From an uncultured Clostridia bacterium (lineage in GTDB: Bacteria; Bacillota; Clostridia; TANB77; CAG-508), in assembly GCA_944392425.1 (NCBI GenBank), contig CALXWM010000001.1:23589-87588 (forward strand): 64,000 nt of DNA, in the 5' to 3' direction. The position numbers and the translations under genes were made by a program. Below are positions 3,001-23,790 of this stretch, in pieces (position 1 is the stretch's first letter; each line of letters starts with the position of its first letter). The notes below the pieces were generated by a model. The model did not search any database, had not been told where the DNA came from, and worked only from the letters and a program-made list of their open reading frames with translations.

Positions 3001-3324
3001 AGCATCTTCTCCACCAAGCTCAATAACTACATCTGTTTGAGGTATGTATTTTTCAACAGCTCTTTTACAAGCAACAACCTCTTGTATAAAAGGTAGGTCT
3101 AAAAATCTTGCTGCTGACATAGCACCAGAACCTGTTAAAGCTATTGTATATGTATAATCTTTATAATCTTCGGCAAGTTTTTCTAAAACTTGGCATACTG
3201 TATTTTTAGTATCTGAAAAATGTCTTTGGTAATTTTCGTATATAATATTTAGGTCTTCGTCCATTACAACGATTTTAACTGTTGTTGAACCAACGTCAAG
3301 ACCAACATGTAATGTATTACTCAT
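1..3324 (-). CDS. CoA-substrate-specific enzyme activase family protein (fused BadF/BadG/BcrA/BcrD-type ATPase plus 2-hydroxyacyl-CoA dehydratase-like domains). Partial: the C-terminus lies beyond the window start.
   Basis: The reverse-strand frame is open from an ATG at 3324 to position 1. The RBS AAGGTG lies upstream. The N-terminus reads [24 protein letters not shown], an acetate/sugar-kinase-fold ATPase motif. A second DAGSTTTK ATPase repeat occurs later, followed by a Cys-rich HgdB-like region. Six-frame ORFs listed on the plus strand here are antisense noise. Confidence 0.7.
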
Positions 3325-3604
3325 ATAAAATTCACCTTATTTAAAAATTTAGGTTTTTAAGGTTACCTATAAACCTAAATTTTATATCCTTATTTATAAA
3401 AAAATAAGAACACAAAATCTCTACCATATTGTATATGCAAAAGACTTATTTGTCAATAACTAAAGATTGGCAAAATGCCTAATAATACTGTAATTCTCGC
3501 AAAAATGAGTTATATGTGTTTTTTACGAAAATATAAAAATTAAGTTATATTTAGATTATTTATTTCATAGTATTTGATAGAAAAATCTTTAAAGGAAGGA
3601 CAAA

Positions 3605-4135
3605 ATGTATATGAAAAAAATGTTTATTTTAAAGGTAGTTATAATTATTGCTATTATTTCTATATTGGCTATATTAATTGTTTTAAATTTTTCCACAGAA
3701 GTGGTAGAAAATGTGGAAAATGAAACTGTAATTGAGCCAGAAGAAGAGATTTCAGAAGAACAAATGAGGCAAACCGCAATCACATTATATTTTGAAGATA
3801 AAGAGAGTATGCAATTAGTAACAGAAGAGAAAAAAGTTGATGCCAAAGATTTGGTGGATAATCCATATTTATATATAGTAAATTTATTAATATTAGGACC
3901 AAATAGTGAGAATTTACAAAATCCTATACCTGAAGGAACAAAGGTTAATAAGGCAGAACTTAATGGAGATTGTGTTACTGTTGATTTATCCCAGGAATTT
4001 TTAAATAGTAGTGGAACAAATGCTATTTATGCTATAGTAAATTCTTTAACTGAATTAAAAGAAGTAAATAGCGTAAAGTTTTTAATTGATGGTGAAGAAC
4101 AAGATAATATGAAAGAGGCATTTGTGAGAAAGTAA
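3605..4135 (+). CDS. GerMN domain-containing membrane-anchored protein (sporulation/germination-associated)
   Basis: An N-terminal TM helix is followed by a GerMN-like region (TLYFEDKESMQL...VTVDLSQEF...VNSVKFLIDGEE). The RBS AAGGAAGGA lies upstream. Confidence 0.55.
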   Translation: MYMKKMFILKVVIIIAIISILAILIVLNFSTEVVENVENETVIEPEEEISEEQMRQTAITLYFEDKESMQLVTEEKKVDAKDLVDNPYLYIVNLLILGPNSENLQNPIPEGTKVNKAELNGDCVTVDLSQEFLNSSGTNAIYAIVNSLTELKEVNSVKFLIDGEEQDNMKEAFVRK

Positions 4136-4140
4136 AGTTT

Positions 4141-4329
4141 GTTACTATTCACAGCTATACATCTTAACTAAGTCTCCAATATACATTCTGCCGCATTTGC
4201 TTCGAGGTTTCGCTATTCGCGAAAACTCTCGCTCGCTGCCACTCCGCTCCTACGTCGTCTGCGTTCGCTGAAATGCTTTAGAACATATATTGGAGACTTT
4301 ATATAAATAATATAACTGAGAATAGTAAC
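4141..4329. repeat. Long imperfect palindromic element P1a (filled form) in the 3' UTR of the GerMN gene
   Basis: Outer inverted repeat GTTACTATTC (4141-4150) / GAATAGTAAC (4320-4329). Inner inverted repeat CTAAGTCTCCAATATACATTC (4168-4188) / GAACATATATTGGAGACTT (4281-4299). Core hairpin GAGGTTTCGC-TATTC-GCGAAAACTC. The core is shared with 27958-28103. Confidence 0.6.
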
Positions 4330-4340
4330 AAAATTTTAAT

Positions 4341-4379
4341 AAACCCTTAAATGTTATGATTTAAAGGGTTTATTTTTTA
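4341..4379 (+). terminator. Rho-independent terminator
   Basis: Hairpin AAACCCTTAAAT...TTAAAGGGTTT followed by a T-run. Confidence 0.55.
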
Positions 4380-4406
4380 CCAGAAATATGCTATACTAAA
4401 ACTATT

Positions 4407-5126
4407 ATGGAAAGAATAGATGATTTACAATATAAAGGTTTAAAAATAATTCAAAACACAGAAGGCTTTTGCTTTGGCATAGATAGTGTCTTACTTACAG
4501 AATTTGCAAAGGATATGAAAAAGCATAGTTCAATAGTAGATTTGGGAGCAGGCACAGGGATAATAGGAATATTACTTAGTAAAAAGGTAGAAGCTTCAAA
4601 AATAGTCGGTGTCGAAGTTCAAAATGATGTAGCCCAAATGGCTAAAAGAAGTGTTGAATTAAATAATCTACAAAATATAATGAGCATAGTTAATGAAGAT
4701 GTGCAAAATCTAAGTTTAGAAAAAAACTCTTTTGACTATGTAGTAACAAATCCACCATATAAGAAAAAAGGTACGGGAATTATAAATCAAAAAGATAAAC
4801 AAATAATTTCAAGGCATGAAACAACAGTAGATTTAGAGGGATGGATAAAGGTTGCAAGTAAATTATTAAAAGATAATGGTGCAATATATATGGTGCATAG
4901 ACCTGAAAGGCTTAATGAAATAATAGAAATATTAAGAAAATATAGGTTAGAACCAAAAAGAATAAGATTTGTATATCCTAAAATAGATAAAGATGCAAAT
5001 TTAGTATTAATAAAAGCTGTAAAATATGCAAATTCTTTCCTTAAAGTAGAGAAGCCATTAATAATATATAAAAATGACGGAAGTTATACAGATGAAATAT
5101 TAAAAATATATGAAGAGGGAAAATAA
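4407..5126 (+). CDS. Class I SAM-dependent methyltransferase, tRNA (adenine37-N6)-methyltransferase (TrmN6/YfiC)-like
   Basis: SAM motif I DLGAGTGIIGI. N6-adenine MTase motif IV NPPY (VTNPPYKKK). Confidence 0.6.
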   Translation: MERIDDLQYKGLKIIQNTEGFCFGIDSVLLTEFAKDMKKHSSIVDLGAGTGIIGILLSKKVEASKIVGVEVQNDVAQMAKRSVELNNLQNIMSIVNEDVQNLSLEKNSFDYVVTNPPYKKKGTGIINQKDKQIISRHETTVDLEGWIKVASKLLKDNGAIYMVHRPERLNEIIEILRKYRLEPKRIRFVYPKIDKDANLVLIKAVKYANSFLKVEKPLIIYKNDGSYTDEILKIYEEGK

Positions 5127-6417: not shown

Positions 6418-7002
6418 ATGTTAAATTATATTTGGCCTATTCTAATATTGGCTTCTTTTATATATGCAATTTTTAGTGGAAATGTACAAAATCTAAATAG
6501 TTCAATTTTTAAATCTCTTGAAGAAGTTATCACTCTTTCTATGACTCTAGTTGGTACGATGTGTTTATGGTGTGGTATGATGGAAATAGTAAAAAATACA
6601 TCAATAATGAAAAAAATAATAAGAATGCTAAGACCAGTACTAAATTGGCTTTTTCCAGAGAGCAAAAATAATGAAGAAGCAATGGAAAATATATCGATGA
6701 ACACAATTTCAAATATATTAGGATTAGGAAATGCATCAACTCCAGCAGGAATTAAGGCTATGGAGAGCCTACAAAAAGAAAATAAGAATAAACAAAAATT
6801 AAGTAATTCTATGTTAATGTTAATTGTTTTAAATACTACATCGATAGAGCTCATACCAACAACAGTAATTGCAATAAGAACATCTTTAAATGCACAAAAT
6901 CCTGCTGATATAATTATTCCAATATGGTTTGCAACAATAATAGGAACAGTAGTAGGGGTGATATCTACTAAAATTTTAATAAAAAGGAGTAAAAATAAAT
7001 GA
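6418..7002 (+). CDS. spmA: Spore maturation protein A (nucleoside-recognition/Gate domain)
   Basis: MLNYIWPILILASFIYAI... membrane protein paired with spmB. RBS AGAGGA 7 nt upstream. The track ORF starts 48 nt earlier. Confidence 0.75.
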   Translation: MLNYIWPILILASFIYAIFSGNVQNLNSSIFKSLEEVITLSMTLVGTMCLWCGMMEIVKNTSIMKKIIRMLRPVLNWLFPESKNNEEAMENISMNTISNILGLGNASTPAGIKAMESLQKENKNKQKLSNSMLMLIVLNTTSIELIPTTVIAIRTSLNAQNPADIIIPIWFATIIGTVVGVISTKILIKRSKNK

Positions 7003-7508
7003 CATATATTTCAGCAATGATTATTCCTACCATTATCTCAATAATATTAATTGTTGGGTTAAAAGAAAAAAAGAATGTATATGATTTATTTATTAATGGA
7101 GCGAAAGATGGTATAAAAGTCGTATTAAAATTATTCCCTACTTTAATAGGAATTTTTTTAGCTATATATATGCTAAGAAGTTCTGGATTAATTGATTTTA
7201 TATGTAATATAATTTCTAATGTAACAAAAATATTTAGTATACCTAGTGAAATATTGCCATTAGCAATTATTAAGCCTATTTCAGGTAGTGGTTCAATGGC
7301 AATTGCTACAGAAATAATGGCTCATTTTGGCGTAGATAGTAATATAGGAAGAATTGCTGCAACAATTATGGGATCATCTGAAACTACTTTTTATGTAATA
7401 GCTTTATATATGAGTAGCGTAAAAGTTAAAGATGGAAGAAAAGTTGTAATTCCTGCCTTGCTTGCAGATTTAGCTAGTACAATTTCTGCAATTCTATTTT
7501 TAAGTTAA
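6999..7508 (+). CDS. spmB: Spore maturation protein B
   Basis: Overlaps spmA by 4 nt (ATGA coupling). Membrane protein matching the SpmB family. Confidence 0.75.
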   Translation: MTYISAMIIPTIISIILIVGLKEKKNVYDLFINGAKDGIKVVLKLFPTLIGIFLAIYMLRSSGLIDFICNIISNVTKIFSIPSEILPLAIIKPISGSGSMAIATEIMAHFGVDSNIGRIAATIMGSSETTFYVIALYMSSVKVKDGRKVVIPALLADLASTISAILFLS

Positions 7509-9863
7509 AAATTATTTTTATTATATTAAACTAATTAAAAAAATTAAATAGAAATAAAAAAATAAATAAAAAATAATTAAATAAATAAAAAAATTAAATA
7601 AATAAAAAAATAAATAAATAAATAATTAATTAAATAAAAAAATAATTAAATAAAATAAATAATTAAAATAAAAATATAAAAAATAGAAAAACAATTAATA
7701 ATAAATTAAATAAAATATAAAAAAGAAATAAAAATTTTTATTAATGTTAATATAAAAATAAATATGTATATTAAAAAAATATATATAAGATAAAAAACAT
7801 AAAGTTATTTACAAATTGACAAAACTAAATTTAAAATTTAAAAAATAATTTAAAAAATCTTCTGAATAAAAACTCTTAATTACTAGATAAAAATTTAAAT
7901 AAAAATCTAAAATTTATTAAGGAATAAAAGATTTTAAGAATTAACTTGTCTAAAAATAGCAAAACTATAAAACATTTAAATTGTATACATAAAGTAAAAA
8001 ATATATAACTTAATGAACTAAATTATAAAAATAAAATAATATTATTGTCTTTTTGATAAAGTGAGAAGTGTCGAAAAAAAGCAAAAAATGTACAAAAAAA
8101 TGATAAAAAACTTAAAAAATAAATTATAATGGGCAAAATAATAATAAAAAATTAAAAAGAATGAGTGACAAAAAGACAAGATTTAATTTGAATTAATTAT
8201 ATTAATAAAGCATAATTTATTAAAAATTGTAAAAATAATATGAAAAAAGGTAGATAATAATTGGAAAAAATATATTCAAAAGCCTAAGGAATTAGCTAAA
8301 AACAGATTTTTTGAATTTCTTAACAAATTATTTTAATAAGGATAAAATAAATTAAAAATAAATAATTATTTTGAAAAGGTAAAAAATATTTTATTAATAA
8401 TTGTTAAAATGACAAAATTAAATTTACAGTAAATTTAACCTTTTTAGTGTAGAAATATAGTACCAGGTTTAAATATGGAATAAAACTAAAATATTTTATT
8501 AGAATTAATAATTTATATTTTATAAAAAATATAAATTAAACAAAAATATAAATTAAACAAAAATATAAATTAAAGAAAAAAATAAATTAAATAAAAAATA
8601 AATTAAACAAAAAACTAAAATAAATTAAATAAAAAATAAATTAAATAAAAAATAATTAAATAAAATAAATTAAATAAAAATAAATAAAATAAAATAAAAT
8701 AAATTAATAAAATTAAATAAATATTAAATTAAAAATAAATAAAATATTCAGAACTAATTAAACATACCCAAGATATATTTTATTATAATCAAAAAATTGA
8801 TATAGAAGTAAATATATTAAATTAAAAAATTAATATCTATATAAAAAGATAAATATATTATAATATTTTATAAGTTTTAATAAATTAAATGTAAATAAAT
8901 GAATTTGTTTTACAAATTGACAAATCTCGAATTGGTAAAAAAATGAATTCCAGTAAAAATACTTTAAATTGATTTCAACAATTTTGAGTATAAATGATAC
9001 TATGGACTTCTTCAAATACTGAGGAAATAAGACTTTTGAGAAGAAGGTTTAATCTTCTTAAAAGAATTCAAACTTCAAAAAATGGTATACATAAACATTG
9101 AAACGACAATACTGTACAGAAGATGTACTTTTATCAATTGTCTTTTTGAATAAACGAAAAATAAGAAATATAATAAAAAAAGCTTTTTAAAAACTTAAAA
9201 AGCGCAAAAAAATTGAAAAAATGAAATAAAAATTTAATAGATAAAAAAATAATTGATTGGCAAAAAAGCAAAAAATAAAATTGAGTTAATTACATAGAGA
9301 TTAACAAAAAATCGAAATGGCGTCAATAATATGATTTAAAACTAGAGTGTTTTCTGAAAAAATATTTTATTTTTTGCTAAGGGATAGGCAAAAAATTGAA
9401 TTTTTTGCTTTGATGAAAGATTTTGGAACTTTAATTAAATTTATGTAGAATTTTTTAAAGAAAGATTGGAGTGATACAAAAATAAAAAGGACAGTTGTTA
9501 AATTGACAAGATAATGCTAACAACTGAAAATGGTAGAGTATGGCAAAAAAGATAGCTATATATAACACCAGATGGACAATTTAAAAATATAAAATTAAAA
9601 CTGATAATAAATAATAAAAAAATAAAATAATTAAAAAATAAAATAATAAAAAAATAAAATAATTAAAAAATAAAATAATTAAAAAAATAAAATAATTAAA
9701 AAAATAAAATAATAAAAAAATAAAATAATAAAAAAATAAAATAATTAAAAAATAAAATAATTAAATAAAATAAATTAAATTATAATAAAATTAATTAATA
9801 ATAAAAAAATAAACTTAATAAAAATATTAAGCTTATTTTTTAAATAATATTAATTTAATAAAA
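7509..9863. repeat. 2.35-kb non-coding AT-rich (>85% AT) tract with three low-complexity tandem arrays (about 7545-7700, 8520-8720, 9596-9790)
   Basis: No ORF of 60 aa or more on either strand. 17-19 bp units such as AAAATAAAATAATTAAAAA occur about 10 times at 9596-9790. Normal-complexity islands at 8890-9140 and 9290-9560 carry TTGACAA -35-like boxes. Confidence 0.7.
9805..9841. terminator. Bidirectional terminator downstream of the MBL-fold gene
   Basis: Hairpin AACTTAATA...TATTAAGCTT flanked by A/T runs. Confidence 0.45.
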
Positions 9864-16844: not shown

Positions 16845-17052
16845 GAGGACATAATTTAAAGCTTTAAATTAAAAATATTTTATCATGAAATTTTTTATAT
16901 AATTAAATTGATTCAAAATTTAAATCTTAAAAATTTCAATAAAAAATTTTATTAAATGTATAACCTATATTTGAGGTTTTTTTTATAATTCTTGTTAAAA
17001 ATAAGATTTAAATCACGAATTCTCACAGAAAATTATAATGGAGGATTATTAT

Positions 17053-17997
17053 ATGGCAGAAAAAGAAGAAAGTATAAAATTATTAAAACCAAAGATAGAC
17101 ATAGTTTTTCAAAGCTTATTTAGCAAGAAAAATGAAAAAATAACAAAAGCATTTGCAGAAGCAATGTTAGATGAAAAAGTAAAAAAAATAACAATAAACG
17201 ATGATAAAGAATTATTTAGAGAAAAACCAGAAGATAAACTTGGGATATTAGACCTAGAATTAGATATAAATGACAGAGAAAAGGTAGATATAGAAATACA
17301 ATTAGTGGATAGATCAAATATACAGGAAAGGTTATTGTTTTATTTTTCAAAATTGTATTATAACGAAGTAAAAAAAGGGGATGACTATAAAAAGGCTAAA
17401 AGAGTAGTAATGGTAGCGATACTAGATTACGATTTTAACCTAACAAAAGAAATTAAAAGAATGGAAACAAAATGGAAACTTAGAGAAGAAAATGCAAAAG
17501 ACCTCGTCTTGACAGACAAAATTGAAATAGATATAATAGAACTATCTAAAGTAAGGGCTGAATATGAAAAAAATAAGCAAAACAAAAAGGCACAATGGGC
17601 ATTGTTCATAAACGACCCTAATACTAAGGAGGTCAAAGAAATTATGAAGGAAAATGAAGATATAGAAGAAGCAGTAGTAACAGTACATAAAATGACAGAA
17701 GATGAAAAAATGAGAAGACTAGCAGATTTAAGAGAAAAAGCCATATTGGATGAAAAGGCAATTAGACGTAAAGGCTATGAAGATGGACATGAAGCTGGTT
17801 ACGAAGATGGCCGAACAGAAGGCCGAGCAGAAGGTCGAGCAGAAGGTCGCGCAGAAGGACTGGAAAAAGGAAGAACAGAAGGAAAAGCAGAAGAAAGAAA
17901 AGCAATATTAAATAATTTAAAGAAAATGAAATTATCAACAGAAGAAATTTGCAAAATTTTAAATATAACAACAGAAGAATTAGAAAAAATGGAATAG
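17053..17997 (+). CDS. Rpn-family recombination-promoting nuclease / putative transposase (YhgA-like PD-(D/E)XK) with C-terminal DUF4351-like tail
   Basis: N-terminal PD-(D/E)XK core (ILDLELD...DIEIQ). C-terminus carries EGRAEGRAEGRAEG repeats and a terminal STEEICKILNITTEELEKM helix typical of this family. RBS GGAGGA 7 nt upstream. Confidence 0.75.
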   Translation: MAEKEESIKLLKPKIDIVFQSLFSKKNEKITKAFAEAMLDEKVKKITINDDKELFREKPEDKLGILDLELDINDREKVDIEIQLVDRSNIQERLLFYFSKLYYNEVKKGDDYKKAKRVVMVAILDYDFNLTKEIKRMETKWKLREENAKDLVLTDKIEIDIIELSKVRAEYEKNKQNKKAQWALFINDPNTKEVKEIMKENEDIEEAVVTVHKMTEDEKMRRLADLREKAILDEKAIRRKGYEDGHEAGYEDGRTEGRAEGRAEGRAEGLEKGRTEGKAEERKAILNNLKKMKLSTEEICKILNITTEELEKME

Positions 17998-18923: not shown

Positions 18924-18998
18924 TGTTTCCGTAGCTCAGTTGGATAGAGCAATCGCCTCCTAAGCGAGAGATCGGCAGTTCGACTCTGCCCGGGAACA
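18924..18998 (+). tRNA. tRNA-Arg (anticodon CCT)
   Basis: Cloverleaf: acceptor GTTTCCG/CGGGAAC, D-arm GCTC..GAGC, anticodon loop CTCCTAA, T-arm GGCAGTTCGACTCTGCC. Genomic CCA follows. Confidence 0.85.
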
Positions 18999-19466: not shown

Positions 19467-20330
19467 ATGAGCTTTGGAGAAAACTTAACTAATTTAAGAA
19501 GACAAAAAGGTTGGTCACAAGATGATTTAGCAAACAATTTAGATTTATCAAGACAAGCAATTTCTAAATGGGAAAATGAAACTAGTAAACCTGATATTGA
19601 TAACATTAAAAAGATAAGTAAAATTTTCTCTATAAAAATTGATGACTTGATTAATAATGAGCTACCTGATGATAAAGCAGTTACATTGGATGTTAAAAAA
19701 GAAGAGAAGAGAGAGAAAACTATTACCATTATAAAATTAATGATTATCGCTGTGATAATTTTATATGTAATTAGCGTTATCTATAAGTTTGCTTCATTAT
19801 TAGTAATTGTTAATGGTGTGCAAAAGTATGCTAACTTAAATAATTATCATTATGTTATTACTACTTACGATGAAAACGGATTAGCTGAGAAAGAGGAATG
19901 CTGGTTTAAAGACGGAGTATCGAAAACAATAAATACAGCGGTGGAAGATGAAATATTATATGAAAAGCAAACGTATATTGATTATAATAATGCTCTAGGA
20001 TATACAATTATTGACAATAATAAACAGAGGATAAACTATGATGAATATATAAAATATAATCTGAATTTTGAATTAGGTGGGCAAATGTTTTCAAATTTTC
20101 CGGTTGTAATCCAAGAGAATAATGTTGTTTCAATTTTAGCAAAAGCTTTTAGAGTTAATAATAGTTCAATCAAAATTGAAAATAATTCAATTATTTTAAA
20201 CTTTGATAAAAGTTATGTTATTTTAGATAAATCAACATTGCTTCCAATAATGGGGATTTATGAGAGCAATAAAAATGATAATAATATTCAATCCTATTTT
20301 ATTGAGCTAAATAATGTTTCAAAATTATAA
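19467..20330 (+). CDS. XRE-family HTH transcriptional regulator with a central TM segment and C-terminal extracytoplasmic domain
   Basis: HTH_3 (LRRQKGWSQDDLANNLDLSRQAISKWE). TM helix IIKLMIIAVIILYVISVIY. Confidence 0.7.
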   Translation: MSFGENLTNLRRQKGWSQDDLANNLDLSRQAISKWENETSKPDIDNIKKISKIFSIKIDDLINNELPDDKAVTLDVKKEEKREKTITIIKLMIIAVIILYVISVIYKFASLLVIVNGVQKYANLNNYHYVITTYDENGLAEKEECWFKDGVSKTINTAVEDEILYEKQTYIDYNNALGYTIIDNNKQRINYDEYIKYNLNFELGGQMFSNFPVVIQENNVVSILAKAFRVNNSSIKIENNSIILNFDKSYVILDKSTLLPIMGIYESNKNDNNIQSYFIELNNVSKL

Positions 20331-20353
20331 AAAAACAGGTCTATTATAGACCT
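20329..20353 (-). terminator. Terminator hairpin for the minus-strand secreted-protein gene (bidirectional)
   Basis: AGGTCTA-TTA-TAGACCT with a T-run on the minus strand. Confidence 0.5.
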
Positions 20354-20372
20354 GAAATAGGAGAGAAAAGAA

Positions 20373-20858
20373 TTAATCATAAATAAAAGCAGCAACTTGG
20401 TAGGGTGTTGTGATTCCAGAGGAAAAATAGAAAGTATAGTTCCCTGCCGGAGCATAAGTTAATTCACGAGAATAGGTGGAACTACCGGTTCCAACCATAC
20501 TTCCCAAACTTATTGTTTGACCGTTGGGAGTAAGAACAGAGCATGTAACCACGCTATTCTGATCAGTGTATCCAATTTGGGCAACAATGTCGGCCCAAAA
20601 GTTGCCACTCGGAAGGGTTACTGTCAGAGTACCACTGCCACCATAAATGGTTGTAGCACCACCTGCAATCACATCGCCCAAGCTGGCCCGGGTGCTGACA
20701 TCTTCCGAAGCAGAAACAGAATCGACTTCTTCAGAGACCGAAGTCAGATTGATCGTTTCAGACTTGGCAGGCTCAGCGGCAAAAGCCGAAGTGGTAAAGC
20801 CGATAGCCAGAGCCAAAGTCATCAGAAGAGCAACAAACCGTTTCTTCATAGCATTCAT
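20373..20858 (-). CDS. Secreted Gly/Ser/Thr-rich small protein of unknown function, encoded by a compositionally foreign (GC-rich) gene
   Basis: Sec signal peptide (MKKRFVALLMTLALAIGFTTSAFA). The gene is roughly 45-50% GC against roughly 28-30% in neighbouring genes. GCC/CCG/GGC codons are absent elsewhere in the window. Confidence 0.65.
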   Translation of the reverse strand: MNAMKKRFVALLMTLALAIGFTTSAFAAEPAKSETINLTSVSEEVDSVSASEDVSTRASLGDVIAGGATTIYGGSGTLTVTLPSGNFWADIVAQIGYTDQNSVVTCSVLTPNGQTISLGSMVGTGSSTYSRELTYAPAGNYTFYFSSGITTPYQVAAFIYD

Positions 20859-21090
20859 CCTTTCTAATTTGTAATGAGTTGATAGTCGGACATTTCTACT
20901 CTCTCCTATTTTTTATATTACCATACACTCTGGAAAGATTCAGAATGTAATAGTAATCAAATTATGCTAAATGCATACATCAAGATATTTACCACCTACG
21001 AGACCAAACTTCTGTATAAAAAGATGAATTGTGAATTACTGGGAAACTTTTGGAATTGACCAAAGGTCCATAATAATTAGGCACATATAA

Positions 21091-21453
21091 ATGCGAGTCG
21101 AAGATAGAAAAATTATTGATGCAATTATGGTGGAACTAAATCACTTCAAATTTAGTCGTTCATCAATATCGTACCAATATTTAATCGACGCTATCCACAT
21201 AGTTGTGAAGAGCCCAATTTCTATCAAGAATTTTAATAAAAGTATTTATGGGCCAATTGCAAAAAAATATGAGACAAAACCTGAAAATGTACAATGGTCA
21301 TTAAGTAAATTAATTGATTTAATGTATTCAAATACTCCATCAGATGTAATTTATGATTATTTCAGATTTTTTATGGATGAAAAACCTACGCTCAAATTTT
21401 TTATTATAACGGTAGCGAGAAATGTATATGATAACCAAGTTGGTTACGGTTAA
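21091..21453 (+). CDS. Orphan Spo0A C-terminal (Spo0A_C) DNA-binding domain protein lacking a receiver domain
   Basis: Aligns to the Spo0A effector domain: SYQYLIDAIHIVV matches GYQYLREAI, IYGPIAKKYETKPENVQWSLSKLIDLMY matches [28 protein letters not shown], and KPTLKFFIITVARNV matches KPTNSEFIAMVADKL. Confidence 0.6.
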   Translation: MRVEDRKIIDAIMVELNHFKFSRSSISYQYLIDAIHIVVKSPISIKNFNKSIYGPIAKKYETKPENVQWSLSKLIDLMYSNTPSDVIYDYFRFFMDEKPTLKFFIITVARNVYDNQVGYG

Positions 21454-21509
21454 TTATTATATACGTGCTTTGTATAACAAAATATTTAAAAGAAAGAAGG
21501 ATTAGAACT

Positions 21510-21776
21510 ATGGACAAAAAGTTATTTGCAACATTAAGTGTTGCAAAAGGGGATACTACAGACGAGATTAAAATCTACAAAATTAAAGGAGAAAAATTCG
21601 GCATTCAAATCGAATCAACTGTTGATTCTAAAACTATGGTTAATACTGCCGAAAATATAACAAGTAGTGAGGAGAAAATAAATAAGCTTCTTGATACTCT
21701 TGTTATGAACTCAGAAAATTTTACATTATTAGAAGATTTTGCGTATGATTTCGCAGACATTGCTCTATCTGTTTAA
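21510..21776 (+). CDS. Hypothetical small protein (88 aa)
   Basis: ORF starting MDKKLFATLSVAKGD. Followed by a perfect 10-bp palindrome hairpin AAGCATATTA/TAATATGCTT (terminator). Confidence 0.4.
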   Translation: MDKKLFATLSVAKGDTTDEIKIYKIKGEKFGIQIESTVDSKTMVNTAENITSSEEKINKLLDTLVMNSENFTLLEDFAYDFADIALSV

Positions 21777-22151
21777 ATGAATAAGCATATTATTTAATAT
21801 GCTTTGTTATTAGGCAAGTAGGGCATTTTTTAGAATTTTATTGTAAAGTATTTTTTGTAATTGAGCGTAGCAGAGGGTATAAATACTTTACAATTAGTTG
21901 GGAATTTATTTGGAACGCTTCGTGTAAATTTATTCAAAATACGGAGGACGATAAGCTTGAACCTTAGAGTAAATAAGCTTTATAGAAGTTTATGTGCATA
22001 AACTGCATAATTACGCACATAAATCTTTGTTAATTTTATAAGTTGCGTAAACTTGCAACAATATTAAATATATGTTATTATAAATTATGTCTTTTATAGG
22101 TTTAATAAAACGCCTTAAGATAATATATTTTCTTTAGAAAGGGTTTGCATA

Positions 22152-22616
22152 GTGAATAAAGAAGATTATATGAAGTTAGCATTAGAAGAGGCAAAAAAGG
22201 CATATGATGAATTAGAGATTCCAGTAGGTGCCATCATTGTTAAAGATGGTAAGGTAATAGCCAAAGCATATAATGAGAAAGAGAAAAAACAAGATAGTAC
22301 AAAGCATGCAGAAATATTGGCAATCCAAAAAGCTACTAAAAAGTTAAAATCATGGAGATTATATGATTGTGATATGTATGTAACTTTAGAGCCATGTAGT
22401 ATGTGTGCTGGAGCACTAATCCAGTCAAGAATTCGTAAAGTATATATTGGAACTATGGACGAGAAGACTGGTGCCTGTGGATCTGTTTTAAACCTATTAG
22501 AAGATTATAAATTTAATCATAAAGTTGATGTAGAATATGGTATTTGCCAGGTAGAATGTGAGAAAATCTTAAAAGATTTTTTTAAATATCTTCGAAAGCT
22601 TAAAGGTAATAAATAG
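22152..22616 (+). CDS. tadA: tRNA-specific adenosine deaminase
   Basis: CDA zinc motifs HAEILAI and PCSMCAGAL. GTG start. Synteny tadA-scr-dnaX as in Bacillus. Confidence 0.85.
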   Translation: MNKEDYMKLALEEAKKAYDELEIPVGAIIVKDGKVIAKAYNEKEKKQDSTKHAEILAIQKATKKLKSWRLYDCDMYVTLEPCSMCAGALIQSRIRKVYIGTMDEKTGACGSVLNLLEDYKFNHKVDVEYGICQVECEKILKDFFKYLRKLKGNK

Positions 22617-22666: not shown

Positions 22667-22758
22667 GAAGAGATACCGAAGTGGTCATAACGGAACTGCC
22701 TCGAAAGCAGGTGGTCACATTTAGTGGCTCGTGGGTTCGAATCCCACTCTCTTCGCCA
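22667..22758 (+). tRNA. tRNA-Ser (anticodon CGA), long variable arm
   Basis: Acceptor GAAGAGA/TCTCTTC, 3-bp D stem, anticodon loop CTCGAAA, long extra arm, T-arm GTGGGTTCGAATCCCAC. Genomic CCA follows. Confidence 0.8.
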
Positions 22759-23650: not shown

Positions 23651-23790
23651 AGGGTATGAGAATGTTTCTTTATAGAGGATATTCTCAATAAAAGGCTATG
23701 AATCTTGTCAGGACCGGAAGGTAGCAGCAATAAGTAGATTCTTTTATGTGGGGATATCCTCTATGGAGAAAGGTTTTTGTACCTTTATTT
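23651..23790 (+). ncRNA. ffs: Signal recognition particle RNA (scr/ffs)
   Basis: Conserved domain-IV motif GTCAGGACCGGAAGGTAGCAGC at 23708-23729. Flanking helix TATAGAGGATAT/ATATCCTCTATGG. Terminal hairpin AAAGGT-TTTTGT-ACCTTT followed by a T-run. Conserved position upstream of dnaX. The ends are approximate. Confidence 0.75.

Follow-up and report, generated by a model that had tools for sequence, protein, structure and literature searches.

Gene content and composition of the locus

We analyzed a 64,000-nucleotide stretch of DNA from an uncultured Clostridia bacterium (contig CALXWM010000001.1, positions 23,589 to 87,588 of the forward strand), referred to below as the window, and in particular a group of small genes around a secreted-protein gene, SEC, that is rich in guanine plus cytosine (GC). 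The core of this group is a convergent pair of SEC and the gene of a predicted single-pass transmembrane transcription regulator of the XRE type (XRE-TM), together with the gene of a Spo0A_C-like protein and, in the chromosomal version, the gene of a DUF6514 protein (Table 1). The segment has been inherited vertically, as a chromosomal module, throughout a lineage of uncultured low-GC Clostridium and is not an island. High GC content is maintained across the SEC family, since it is present across species whose fourfold degenerate (4-fold) sites are saturated and in a mobile copy located in AT-rich DNA.

The GC content of the window is 27.5%. The open reading frame (ORF) at 20373–20858 on the minus strand has a GC content of 46.1% and a GC content at third codon positions (GC3) of 38.9%, whereas the 51 window ORFs of at least 100 aa have a mean GC content of 29% and a mean GC3 of 16.3% (standard deviation 4.8), and the GC3 of the 50 ORFs other than SEC is 16±5%. 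The second-highest GC3 among the window ORFs is 24.6%, and a 300-nt sliding window over the stretch has its GC peak, 48–49%, at 20400–20900. SEC lies outside the range of the other ORFs, so the initial annotation was right to call this gene a compositional outlier. Translation probably starts at the second ATG, at 20849, giving a protein of 158 aa, because a ribosome-binding site (GAAAGGA) is located 8 nt 5' of this ATG and the identical database protein (P0001) also has 158 aa; the upstream ATG at 20858 is an alternative start (161 aa).

The bias is strand-specific, the third positions being A-poor and not T-poor: A-ending codons make up 15% of SEC and 48% of the background, while T is found at 45% of the third positions, a share unchanged from the background or higher. 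The codons AGA, CCA and TCA do not occur in SEC and TTA occurs once, and the codons CTG, CGG, CCC, CCG, GCC, ACC, GTC and ATC are enriched. The GC bias touches all three codon positions as well as the amino-acid composition. When the SEC protein was recoded with the background codon usage, its GC content was 36.9%; therefore about a half of the excess comes from the amino acids and about a half from the choice of codons. The fraction of FYMINK residues (F, Y, M, I, N and K) is 22%, the lowest in the window (background 38±5%); the adjacent ectodomain of XRE-TM, which evolves even faster, lies at the AT-rich extreme, with 40–53% FYMINK and 5–13% GARP (G, A, R and P) residues. The most GC-rich part of SEC is its leader, with 51% GC and a GC3 of 46–50%.

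A conserved chromosomal module

The SEC family has more than 127 homologues, all of 144–190 aa. When 1.84 billion representatives were searched exhaustively with a profile, only 173 SEC relatives were found (E≤1e-3), nearly all of them secreted proteins of about 150 aa with the same layout. For many SEC homologues the longest contig also encodes a homologue of the Spo0A_C-like protein. The gene order at the locus (PGM, PP-loop ATPase, XRE, SEC on the opposite strand, Spo0A_C-like, DUF6514, tadA at 22152–22616, a 248-aa protein, dnaX, ybaB and recR) is kept in all seven GTDB species-level genomes that carry SEC, which are metagenome-assembled genomes labelled as uncultured Clostridium, Clostridia or Bacillota bacterium. 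It is also kept around the SEC orthologue P0105 (L003), which is just 52% identical, and in remoter relatives, where the identity of the Spo0A_C-like protein is 62%, 51% or lower. Absence from close relatives at the XRE–tadA junction was not seen: the segment is present there in every relative examined, that is, in the seven GTDB species and in metagenomic contigs.

In the comparison of these GTDB genomes with the window, the housekeeping neighbours are 73–99% identical, while SEC (44–66%) and XRE (44–60%) are the fastest-evolving genes of the locus. In almost all relatives SEC retains a GC content of 40–46% and a GC3 of 28–41%, the GC3 of the neighbouring genes being 9–29%. Where species share a residue with a 4-fold codon, its third base is different in 60–80% of the cases, which amounts to saturation, and these sites are still GC-enriched in SEC (0.19–0.41) compared with XRE (0.06–0.24). 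The SEC leader follows the species tree, its identity correlating with that of the Spo0A_C-like protein (r=0.91). The only SEC of normal composition (GC3 12%) is that of L022, the most distant syntenic relative.

A distant SEC homologue, P0328 (about 27% identity with P0175, the query sequence of the profile), has 42% GC and a GC3 of 31%, and is located on a Mob_Pre mobilisable element in 24%-GC DNA. In the mobile version (L037 and L038) XRE-TM is convergent with SEC, and a Spo0A_C-like gene (29 bits, cut-off 25) directly precedes XRE-TM. The three genes lie at the edge of the Mob_Pre-bearing element (6001–12459 of L037/L038), which sits in two contexts, next to sigma and anti-sigma genes in one case and next to a type I restriction-modification system in the other. 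The association of the trio thus survives complete rearrangement, and therefore a functional link is favoured. L037 also carries at 2391–2903 a second GC-rich gene with a signal peptide, p170 (44% GC, GC3 46%, in 24%-GC DNA), which is convergent with genes for a DUF4179 anti-sigma factor and an ECF sigma factor (3055–4588), an arrangement analogous to SEC and XRE-TM. This hints that a GC-rich secreted protein facing a single-pass regulator is a wider theme. No SEC homologue was found by tblastn in 50,697 phage genomes and 72,556 plasmids, and none in the IMG/VR viral contigs. The four-gene block is bounded by no integrase and no direct repeats.

A hypervariable cassette in two convergent genes

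Contigs of the same species (L041 and L043) are 98–100% identical to the window at the nucleotide level outside positions ~19850–20676 and 40–78% identical inside, with sharp edges. This hypervariable cassette, about 830 bp long in the window species, ends within both convergent genes: its right edge lies at SEC residue ~58–62, where the linker ends and the folded domain starts, and its left edge lies inside the XRE-TM ectodomain, at residue ~130. Contigs of a second species (L010, L013, L015, L017 and L029) have flanks that are 99–100% identical and a segment of about 850 bp, again with sharp edges, that is 40–65% identical; a third species (L019–L021) has the same cassette pattern. The initial annotation had described the unit from SEC to the palindrome behind the 88-aa ORF. 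That reading was incomplete, as it missed the convergent XRE gene as a member and the fact that half of SEC belongs to a hypervariable cassette.

At the protein level, identity within one species is 19–29% for the distal XRE ectodomain and 47–65% for the SEC domain, whereas the part of XRE with the helix-turn-helix (HTH) domain and the transmembrane (TM) helix and the Spo0A_C-like protein are 99–100% identical. Strains of one species do not differ in the SEC leader, in the HTH and TM parts of XRE-TM, in the Spo0A_C-like gene or in DUF6514, and SEC proteins with an identical leader and folded domains about 50% identical are alleles of a single locus. The same contrast was seen in a collection of 15 billion proteins, where the exact Spo0A_C-like and DUF6514 proteins of the window were found in 150 and 83 contigs, respectively, and its exact SEC and XRE alleles in four contigs each. 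Allele classes partly cross species borders: L008 and L010 are 64% identical in SEC, among the higher values between species, and 53% in the XRE ectodomain, the highest such value. The variation is spread over whole domains. Neither a reverse transcriptase gene at the loci nor a second or silent copy of the cassette in the 64-kb window was found, and a diversity-generating retroelement or local conversion from silent cassettes was therefore ruled out as its source.

Proteins encoded by the module

SEC starts with a signal peptide (residues 1–24: KKR, a hydrophobic core, and AFA followed by AEP at the cleavage point), in agreement with the initial annotation of a secreted protein. An acidic linker rich in Ser, Glu, Ala and Val, with a conserved Arg at its end, extends to residue ~57 and is followed by a folded domain of about 100 aa, which in the AlphaFold model is an eight-stranded beta-sandwich (pLDDT >94). 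The C-terminus is nearly invariant, ...(F/Y)IYD, and reads ...FIYD in the window allele. SEC has no Pfam match, and no toxin or defence family was matched in Pfam, NCBIfam, PADLOC and PHROGs; a weak match to NCBIfam NF053514 ('JUQZ_fam_ocin', BLB8/JUQZ-1 family) is far under the cut-off. Foldseek matched the model to PPC (5sv5), ColH CBD (3jqw), GOLD (5azw) and C-CPE (9j7x) domains with target-normalised TM-scores of 0.42–0.55, sequence identities of 10–18% and E-values no better than ~1e-4; further matches of a generic kind were tail-fibre tips and C1q-like domains. SEC resembles the PPC, collagen-binding and C-CPE modules in being a compact eight-stranded beta-sandwich of about 100 aa, but it stands alone as a secreted domain and has a conserved ...IYD at its C-terminus.

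XRE-TM combines an N-terminal HTH_3 domain (residues 1–65), a linker rich in Lys, Glu and Arg, and one hydrophobic segment, the only one in the protein, with a Kyte-Doolittle maximum of 2.8 at residues 86–104 (linker and helix together precede residue ~119, the helix region being ~86–118). A conserved juxtamembrane segment of the ectodomain (residues ~119–157, VNGVQKYANLNNYHYVITTYDENGL.EKEECWFKDGVSK) is followed by the hypervariable distal ectodomain, which extends to residue 287. In a profile search against the PDB sequences the HTH domain alone had matches (ImmR, Xre, PezA, SinR and CylR2). The predicted architecture, with a DNA-binding domain and a TM helix in one polypeptide, is that of a transmembrane transcription regulator. 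Such regulators are an established class which includes the membrane-bound sensor BcrR, and some of them have extracytoplasmic partner proteins (PMC10269533).

The Spo0A_C-like protein matches PF08769 over profile positions 5–103 of 104 (gathering threshold 25 bits), and its homologues carry this Pfam assignment in precomputed form. Its score against the NCBIfam equivalog model of Spo0A, TIGR02875, is 37.1 bits (cut-off 200), with positions 167–253 of 262 aligned, and there is no Response_reg match in Pfam and hence no receiver domain. Both parts of the earlier description of this gene, an isolated Spo0A effector domain and the lack of a receiver, are thus supported by the profile search. The protein aligns over its full length with the solved effector domains of Bacillus Spo0A (1LQ1 and 1FC3). 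The recognition-helix stretch, which is identical in 1LQ1 and 1FC3, reads NVQWSLSKLID in the Spo0A_C-like family; in the aligned stretch of the window protein, PENVQWSLSKLIDLMY, the E, R and R of the Spo0A sequence ERAIR are replaced by Q, W and S, and these three residues of Spo0A are reported to make the base contacts (Zhao et al. 2002). As the family keeps its own version of the helix, ENVQWSL.KL, its members probably bind DNA, but a site other than the 0A box. Mimicry of Spo0A at 0A boxes, as put forward in the initial annotation, seems unlikely because the recognition-helix residues of Spo0A are missing; moreover, the unit contains no exact 0A box, and near matches are not in excess.

The isolated effector domain of Spo0A binds its targets without phosphorylation (PMC3485338), and truncated receiver-less Spo0A homologues from gut phages have been proposed to act independently of signals (Schwartz et al., bioRxiv 10.1101/2023.01.19.524802). 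The window protein shares with the latter the reduction to an effector domain of about 110–130 aa. It differs from them in that its family is chromosomal, syntenic and vertically inherited, adjoins DUF6514 and the SEC/XRE-TM pair, has an altered recognition helix and had no tblastn match in the 50,697 phage genomes. PHROGs yielded two weak matches of unknown function for the Spo0A_C-like protein, including phrog_24603 of similar size, and none for DUF6514; PADLOC found nothing for either of these proteins or SEC.

The 88-aa ORF noted in the initial annotation is present and could in addition be assigned to DUF6514: its match to PF20124 (gathering threshold 23.9 bits) covers just profile positions 27–78 of 94. 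The scores of the orthologues are 25.7 bits in L022 and 22.7 bits in L035. DUF6514 directly follows the Spo0A_C-like gene in every chromosomal locus, and a literature search for this family gave nothing.

RNA and DNA elements of the module

The SEC mRNA contains conserved elements at both ends. Between the stop codon and the terminator, whose stems vary between alleles while a hairpin is always present, the 3' untranslated region (UTR) contains the element CUCUCCUAUU; the motif CTCTC(T)CC is found here in every in-group allele, the rest of the 3'UTR being hypervariable. In the minimum free energy fold of the SEC mRNA this element pairs with AAUAGGAGAGAG, a near-invariant element of the 5'UTR that resembles a Shine-Dalgarno (SD) sequence. 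The energies of the duplex in the in-group loci range from -18 to -28 kcal/mol, and in L024 a change is matched on both sides (5' GAUAAGAGAGAG, 3' CUCUCUUAUC). Stabilisers at the 5' ends of Firmicute mRNAs, such as STAB-SD of Bacillus thuringiensis cryIIIA and the stem-loops of aprE and ermC, are similar in combining an SD-like AGGAG with a stable hairpin far upstream of the start codon, but the SD-like element of SEC is complementary to an anti-SD-like element in its own 3'UTR. The conserved pairing and the compensatory change therefore suggest end-to-end pairing rather than 30S binding. The complementarity may also be read at the DNA level, as inverted repeats flanking the gene or as a palindromic operator; against this, no recombinase is located nearby and SEC was never seen inverted.

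Just 5' of the SD-like element lies P1, a 16-bp hairpin located between nearly invariant blocks; its lower stem is conserved, and its upper stem is variable and covaries. Compensatory double changes were identified by RNAalifold in 9 of the 16 pairs, and 92% of the cells are paired; none of 500 shuffles reached the observed values, and slid controls gave 31–55%. Nine of 11 sequences contain a U-G wobble, which on the other strand would be an A-C mismatch, so P1 is more plausible as an RNA helix on the SEC sense strand. P1 has no match in Rfam. It would imply a SEC leader longer than the apparent -10 element TGnTAATAT suggests. Upstream of P1 there is a candidate small hairpin, ATGC…GCAT, with apparent compensatory variants, in a region where the alignment is out of register. 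A possible leader peptide, a 9-codon ORF after the SD-like element in the window, was rejected, as it is not conserved in other species. Both P1 and the UTR pairing are absent in the AT-normal outgroup L022 and in the GC-rich distant members L035 and L037.

The folding energy of the SEC mRNA (20336–20925, minus strand) is -187 kcal/mol, compared with -156±7 kcal/mol for dinucleotide shuffles (z = -4.5). For 13 SEC coding sequences, 12 of them from in-group alleles or species and one from L022, the energies are -0.22 to -0.34 kcal/mol/nt, those of neighbouring genes being -0.11 to -0.18, about half as strong. In six of the 13 (five in-group sequences and L022) z ranges from -2.3 to -5; in the rest it is near zero.

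On the other side of the intergenic region, the Spo0A_C-like gene is preceded by (T/G)GAA repeats (21031–21058), a candidate operator conserved across species, which overlap a promoter-like site, TTGGAA-16-AATAAT. In the outgroup L022 the corresponding place is occupied by an expanded GGAAAG repeat array. The perfect 10-nt palindrome reported in the initial annotation exists, although it lies just past the end given there for the unit (21776). It is a probable weak terminator, which the terminator scan left unscored, having too few G-C pairs; the terminator hairpin of SEC is stronger. The 375-bp spacer between DUF6514 and tadA further contains a perfect 14-nt inverted repeat (21840–21853/21881–21894, spacing 27 nt) and imperfect ones at 21973–22057.

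Table 1. Positions of the genes and elements of the module in the window.
Feature	Position	Strand	Evidence
XRE-TM, single-pass transmembrane transcription regulator (predicted)	19467..20330	+	Pfam HTH_3, 55 bits; Kyte-Doolittle profile; alignment
Within-species hypervariable cassette (distal ectodomain of XRE-TM, 42-bp spacer with terminator, folded domain of SEC)	19850..20676	.	Comparison with L041/L043
SEC intrinsic terminator, hairpin CAGGTCTAT/ATAGACCTG followed by a T-run	20336..20354	-	Terminator scan; inverted repeat
SEC 3'UTR element, mRNA CUCUCCUAUU, complementary to the 5'UTR element	20356..20365	-	Conserved motif
SEC, GC-rich secreted-protein gene, 158 aa (probable start)	20373..20849	-	GC and codon data; family of >127 proteins; AlphaFold model
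SEC leader (signal peptide and linker), invariant within species	20677..20849	-	Composition; conspecific alignment
SEC 5'UTR element, SD-like, mRNA AAUAGGAGAGAG	20899..20910	-	Near-invariant block across species
P1, 16-bp hairpin in the upstream/leader region of SEC	20918..20956	-	RNAalifold covariation
Putative promoter region upstream of the Spo0A_C-like gene, with (T/G)GAA three times at 10-bp spacing	21031..21077	+	Intergenic alignment; promoter scan
Spo0A_C-like protein, receiver-less, 120 aa	21091..21453	+	Pfam PF08769, 52.2 bits
DUF6514 protein, 88 aa	21510..21776	+	Pfam PF20124, 27.3 bits
AT-rich 10-bp perfect palindrome AAGCATATTA/TAATATGCTT, probable weak terminator	21783..21804	+	Located after DUF6514

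Two tRNA genes and a small SRP RNA gene, identified with Rfam at 18925–18998, 22667–22755 and 23672–23767, flank the unit, and nothing credible was found by Rfam within it; these housekeeping RNA genes account for the short spurious ORFs at those places. A gene of the PDDEXK_2 (PD-(D/E)XK) transposase family (17038–17997) with a EGRAEGRAEGRAEG repeat lies 1.5 kb upstream of the conserved block and outside it, between the PGM and PP-loop ATPase genes. It is missing at this spot in other species (for example, in L003), and the conspecific contig L041 ends within it, which suggests a multi-copy element. Insertions were also seen at related loci: about 1 kb of inserted DNA cuts XRE-TM to its C-terminal 169 aa in L042 (~6519–8130), and a DDE_Tnp_1 insertion sequence is located between XRE-TM and the PP-loop gene in L040 (5836–7608). 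In L039 and L040 the Spo0A_C-like gene is called at 84 aa and may be N-terminally damaged.

Origin of the GC-richness of SEC

The initial annotation had interpreted the segment as a recent island from a higher-GC donor with an orphan Spo0A_C protein acting as a constitutive 0A-box binder or mimic. The strong compositional deviation of SEC, the genuine Pfam match of the Spo0A_C-like protein and the precedents for phosphorylation-independent effector domains given above are in line with this proposal, which is nevertheless highly improbable. The locus is syntenic in all seven SEC-carrying species and in remoter relatives, and SEC is GC-rich in almost all of them in spite of saturated synonymous divergence. 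The leader, which tracks the species tree, is the most GC-rich part of the gene; the third positions are T-rich and A-poor, unlike those expected from a GC-rich donor; and there is no match in phages or plasmids. The second half of the proposal meets the altered recognition helix and the lack of 0A boxes described above.

A more gradual version of the import scenario assumes that the ancestor of the in-group received SEC long ago from clostridia of higher GC content, that this gene took the place of an AT-rich native copy resembling the one in L022, and that alleles have continually been re-imported from the same outside pool, which would keep SEC from ameliorating. The AT-normal SEC of this outgroup would fit, as would the wider family of 173 representatives, many of which are rich in Ala, Gly and Thr like proteins of moderate-GC Firmicutes, the ability of the SEC/XRE pair to ride a mobilisable element, and the allele classes common to different species. 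We consider this scenario improbable, as the species-specific, vertically inherited leader, which is not part of the cassette, has a still higher GC content, the XRE ectodomain is AT-rich in spite of being transferred along with SEC, the mobile copy lies in 24%-GC DNA, and no locus with a close homologue was found in a GC-rich genome. The only matches in higher-GC contigs were those in L033 (24% identity over most of SEC) and L034 (28 residues in the leader region).

It is likewise very doubtful that an overlapping feature, either a protein gene on the opposite strand or a non-coding RNA with structure, accounts for the composition. In the window the codon-aligned antisense frame has no stop over 129 codons, the mRNA folds with the z-score of -4.5, and there is a weak match to the Rfam proV RNA inside SEC; yet this match scores 27.9 bits (gathering threshold 88.5), SEC is under constraint at the protein level (length, motifs and a confident fold), and excess folding is not universal. 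The antisense ORF was rejected, since its frame is interrupted by stops in varying places in other alleles, 2–9 in the in-group and 15 in L022. GC-biased gene conversion was discarded as the main cause: both halves of the cassette recombine together, but the XRE half is AT-rich, and T3 shows no depletion. Plain translational selection was found insufficient: C- and G-ending 4-fold codons and CGG, CTG and CCG are enriched, and the amino acids are shifted too. Neither G-/C-ending 4-fold codons in general nor CGG, CTG and CCG are known to be preferred in low-GC Firmicutes.

We infer that SEC is kept GC-rich by selection on its nucleotide sequence or its mRNA, favouring a message that is stable, poor in A, strongly folded and paired at its ends; selection for rare-codon, conditionally translated expression would be an alternative. 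The cause of the GC-richness is the weakest step of our account, and three observations count against the proposed selection. L022 has the module without the GC anomaly, and therefore GC-richness is not required for the basic function; GC-rich distant members (L035 and L037) have no UTR pairing; and the z-scores near zero in about a half of the alleles mean that structure beyond composition is not universal.

Possible function of the module

Our tentatively preferred reading, to which we give slightly less than an even chance, is that the module serves recognition by means of a polymorphic secreted ligand and a transmembrane regulator. It is favoured because the convergent pair is conserved even on a mobile element, because the cassette edges follow domain borders, and because the constant parts are an export leader and a DNA-binding and membrane part, as in agr and com systems. 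In such a module SEC would be exported, possibly with cleavage after the conserved Arg that ends the linker, and would then bind the ectodomain of its cognate XRE-TM. This binding would give strain-specific control of XRE-TM, comparable to that in ToxS/ToxR or in pherotype signal/receptor pairs. XRE-TM and the Spo0A_C-like factor might jointly regulate transcription from the divergent promoter region that SEC, in one direction, would share with the Spo0A_C-like gene and DUF6514, in the other.

The pherotype (specificity-group) loci of Gram-positive quorum sensing, agrBDCA, comQXPA and comCDE/blp, offer a close parallel: there, too, a sharply bounded hypervariable segment in a near-identical locus spans the exported signal and the sensing part of the receptor, the export leader and the output domain are constant, and allele classes are common to several species. 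The polymorphic segment of Bacillus comQXP has also been reported to have an atypical composition. The differences are that the candidate signal here is a folded beta-sandwich of about 100 aa with a Sec signal peptide and not a processed or modified peptide, and that the candidate receptor, whose cognate specificity is putative, is a one-component transmembrane XRE regulator and not a histidine kinase. In having a DNA-binding domain fused to a membrane anchor, XRE-TM resembles BcrR and the regulators of the pairs ToxR–ToxS, TcpP–TcpH and PsaE–PsaF; regulators such as ToxR read a signal outside and bind DNA at the membrane (PMC10269533). SEC would be an analogue of the ToxS-type partners, extracytoplasmic proteins that bind the outer domain of the regulator, but it is fully secreted without an anchor, convergently encoded, hypervariable and GC-rich. 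No similarity to ToxR, CadC or BcrR was detected in the outer domain of XRE-TM.

Several points weigh against recognition between SEC and XRE-TM. Their alleles appear to co-vary only weakly beyond physical linkage, as identical pairs drive the correlation (Mantel r=0.69) and there are counter-examples such as L003 and L029, whose SEC domains are 75% and XRE ectodomains 29% identical. The fold matches of the SEC model seem generic, a single-sequence structure model of XRE-TM had a pLDDT of 42 and did not provide the fold of the ectodomain, and the putative part of the Spo0A_C-like and DUF6514 proteins is deduced from their gene neighbourhood.

The weak co-variation could instead be explained if SEC and XRE-TM were two non-interacting exposed proteins that diversify separately, as a phage receptor or decoy or under host immunity, their abutting 3' ends creating the appearance of a cassette. 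The stronger divergence of the XRE ectodomain compared with the SEC domain and the generic likeness of the SEC fold to phage tail-fibre tips and C1q-like receptor-binding domains agree with this. Separate diversification is unlikely, however, given that the two genes remain convergent even in very distant versions, the one on the mobile element among them, that a similar arrangement exists once elsewhere (p170 facing the DUF4179 anti-sigma gene in L037), that on either side the cassette ends at a domain border, and that the exact SEC and XRE alleles are equally rare. Quite unlikely, in our view, is also a bacteriocin-like toxin/immunity cassette shaped by an arms race, in which SEC would be antibacterial or host-directed and the XRE-TM ectodomain its immunity or sensor domain. 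A sharply bounded variable cassette over the C-terminal domains of two adjacent genes, a small secreted product, weak fold likeness to toxin receptor-binding modules (C-CPE, the Cry5B domain and PirA) and the sub-threshold NF053514 match would be expected of such a system, but no toxin, pore-forming or enzymatic domain was detected in SEC, its 100-aa beta-sandwich is a binding module and not a known killing module, and neither a dedicated exporter nor a separate immunity gene is located nearby. To our knowledge, there is no precedent for immunity fused to an HTH regulator.

A further-reaching form of the recognition reading, possible though rather unlikely, is that the module represents a new strain-recognition system of spore-forming Clostridia. 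A folded secreted 'pherotype' would be read by the XRE-TM ectodomain, a receiver-less Spo0A-like factor would be wired into the circuit, and the GC-rich, A-poor, closed-loop and hairpin-capped ligand mRNA would be a post-transcriptional design in a 27%-GC genome. If so, the wiring to a Spo0A-like factor would possibly link the system to developmental decisions, and the SEC mRNA would be a long-lived or conditionally translated message.

Conclusions

The SEC, XRE-TM, Spo0A_C-like and DUF6514 proteins of the module are unnamed in public databases. Each of the ingredients has precedents, namely partnered transmembrane regulators, pherotype cassettes, truncated Spo0A proteins and 5' stabilisers. 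The combination appears to be undescribed: a folded ligand and a regulator ectodomain in one cassette, the link to Spo0A_C and DUF6514, a lasting GC anomaly and covarying RNA.

SEC is a counter-example to equating a compositional outlier with recent horizontal transfer, having kept about 46% GC in a genome of about 27% GC through saturating divergence and beside a segment that evolves at least as fast and has drifted to the AT-rich extreme. This contrast between SEC and XRE shows a gene-specific force at the nucleotide level beyond known mechanisms. If SEC and XRE-TM are indeed a ligand and its regulator, self-recognition of the pherotype type would extend, in gut Clostridia, from peptides and kinases to folded proteins and one-component membrane regulators. 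The module also gives chromosomal Spo0A_C proteins without a receiver, as well as DUF6514, a first genomic context.

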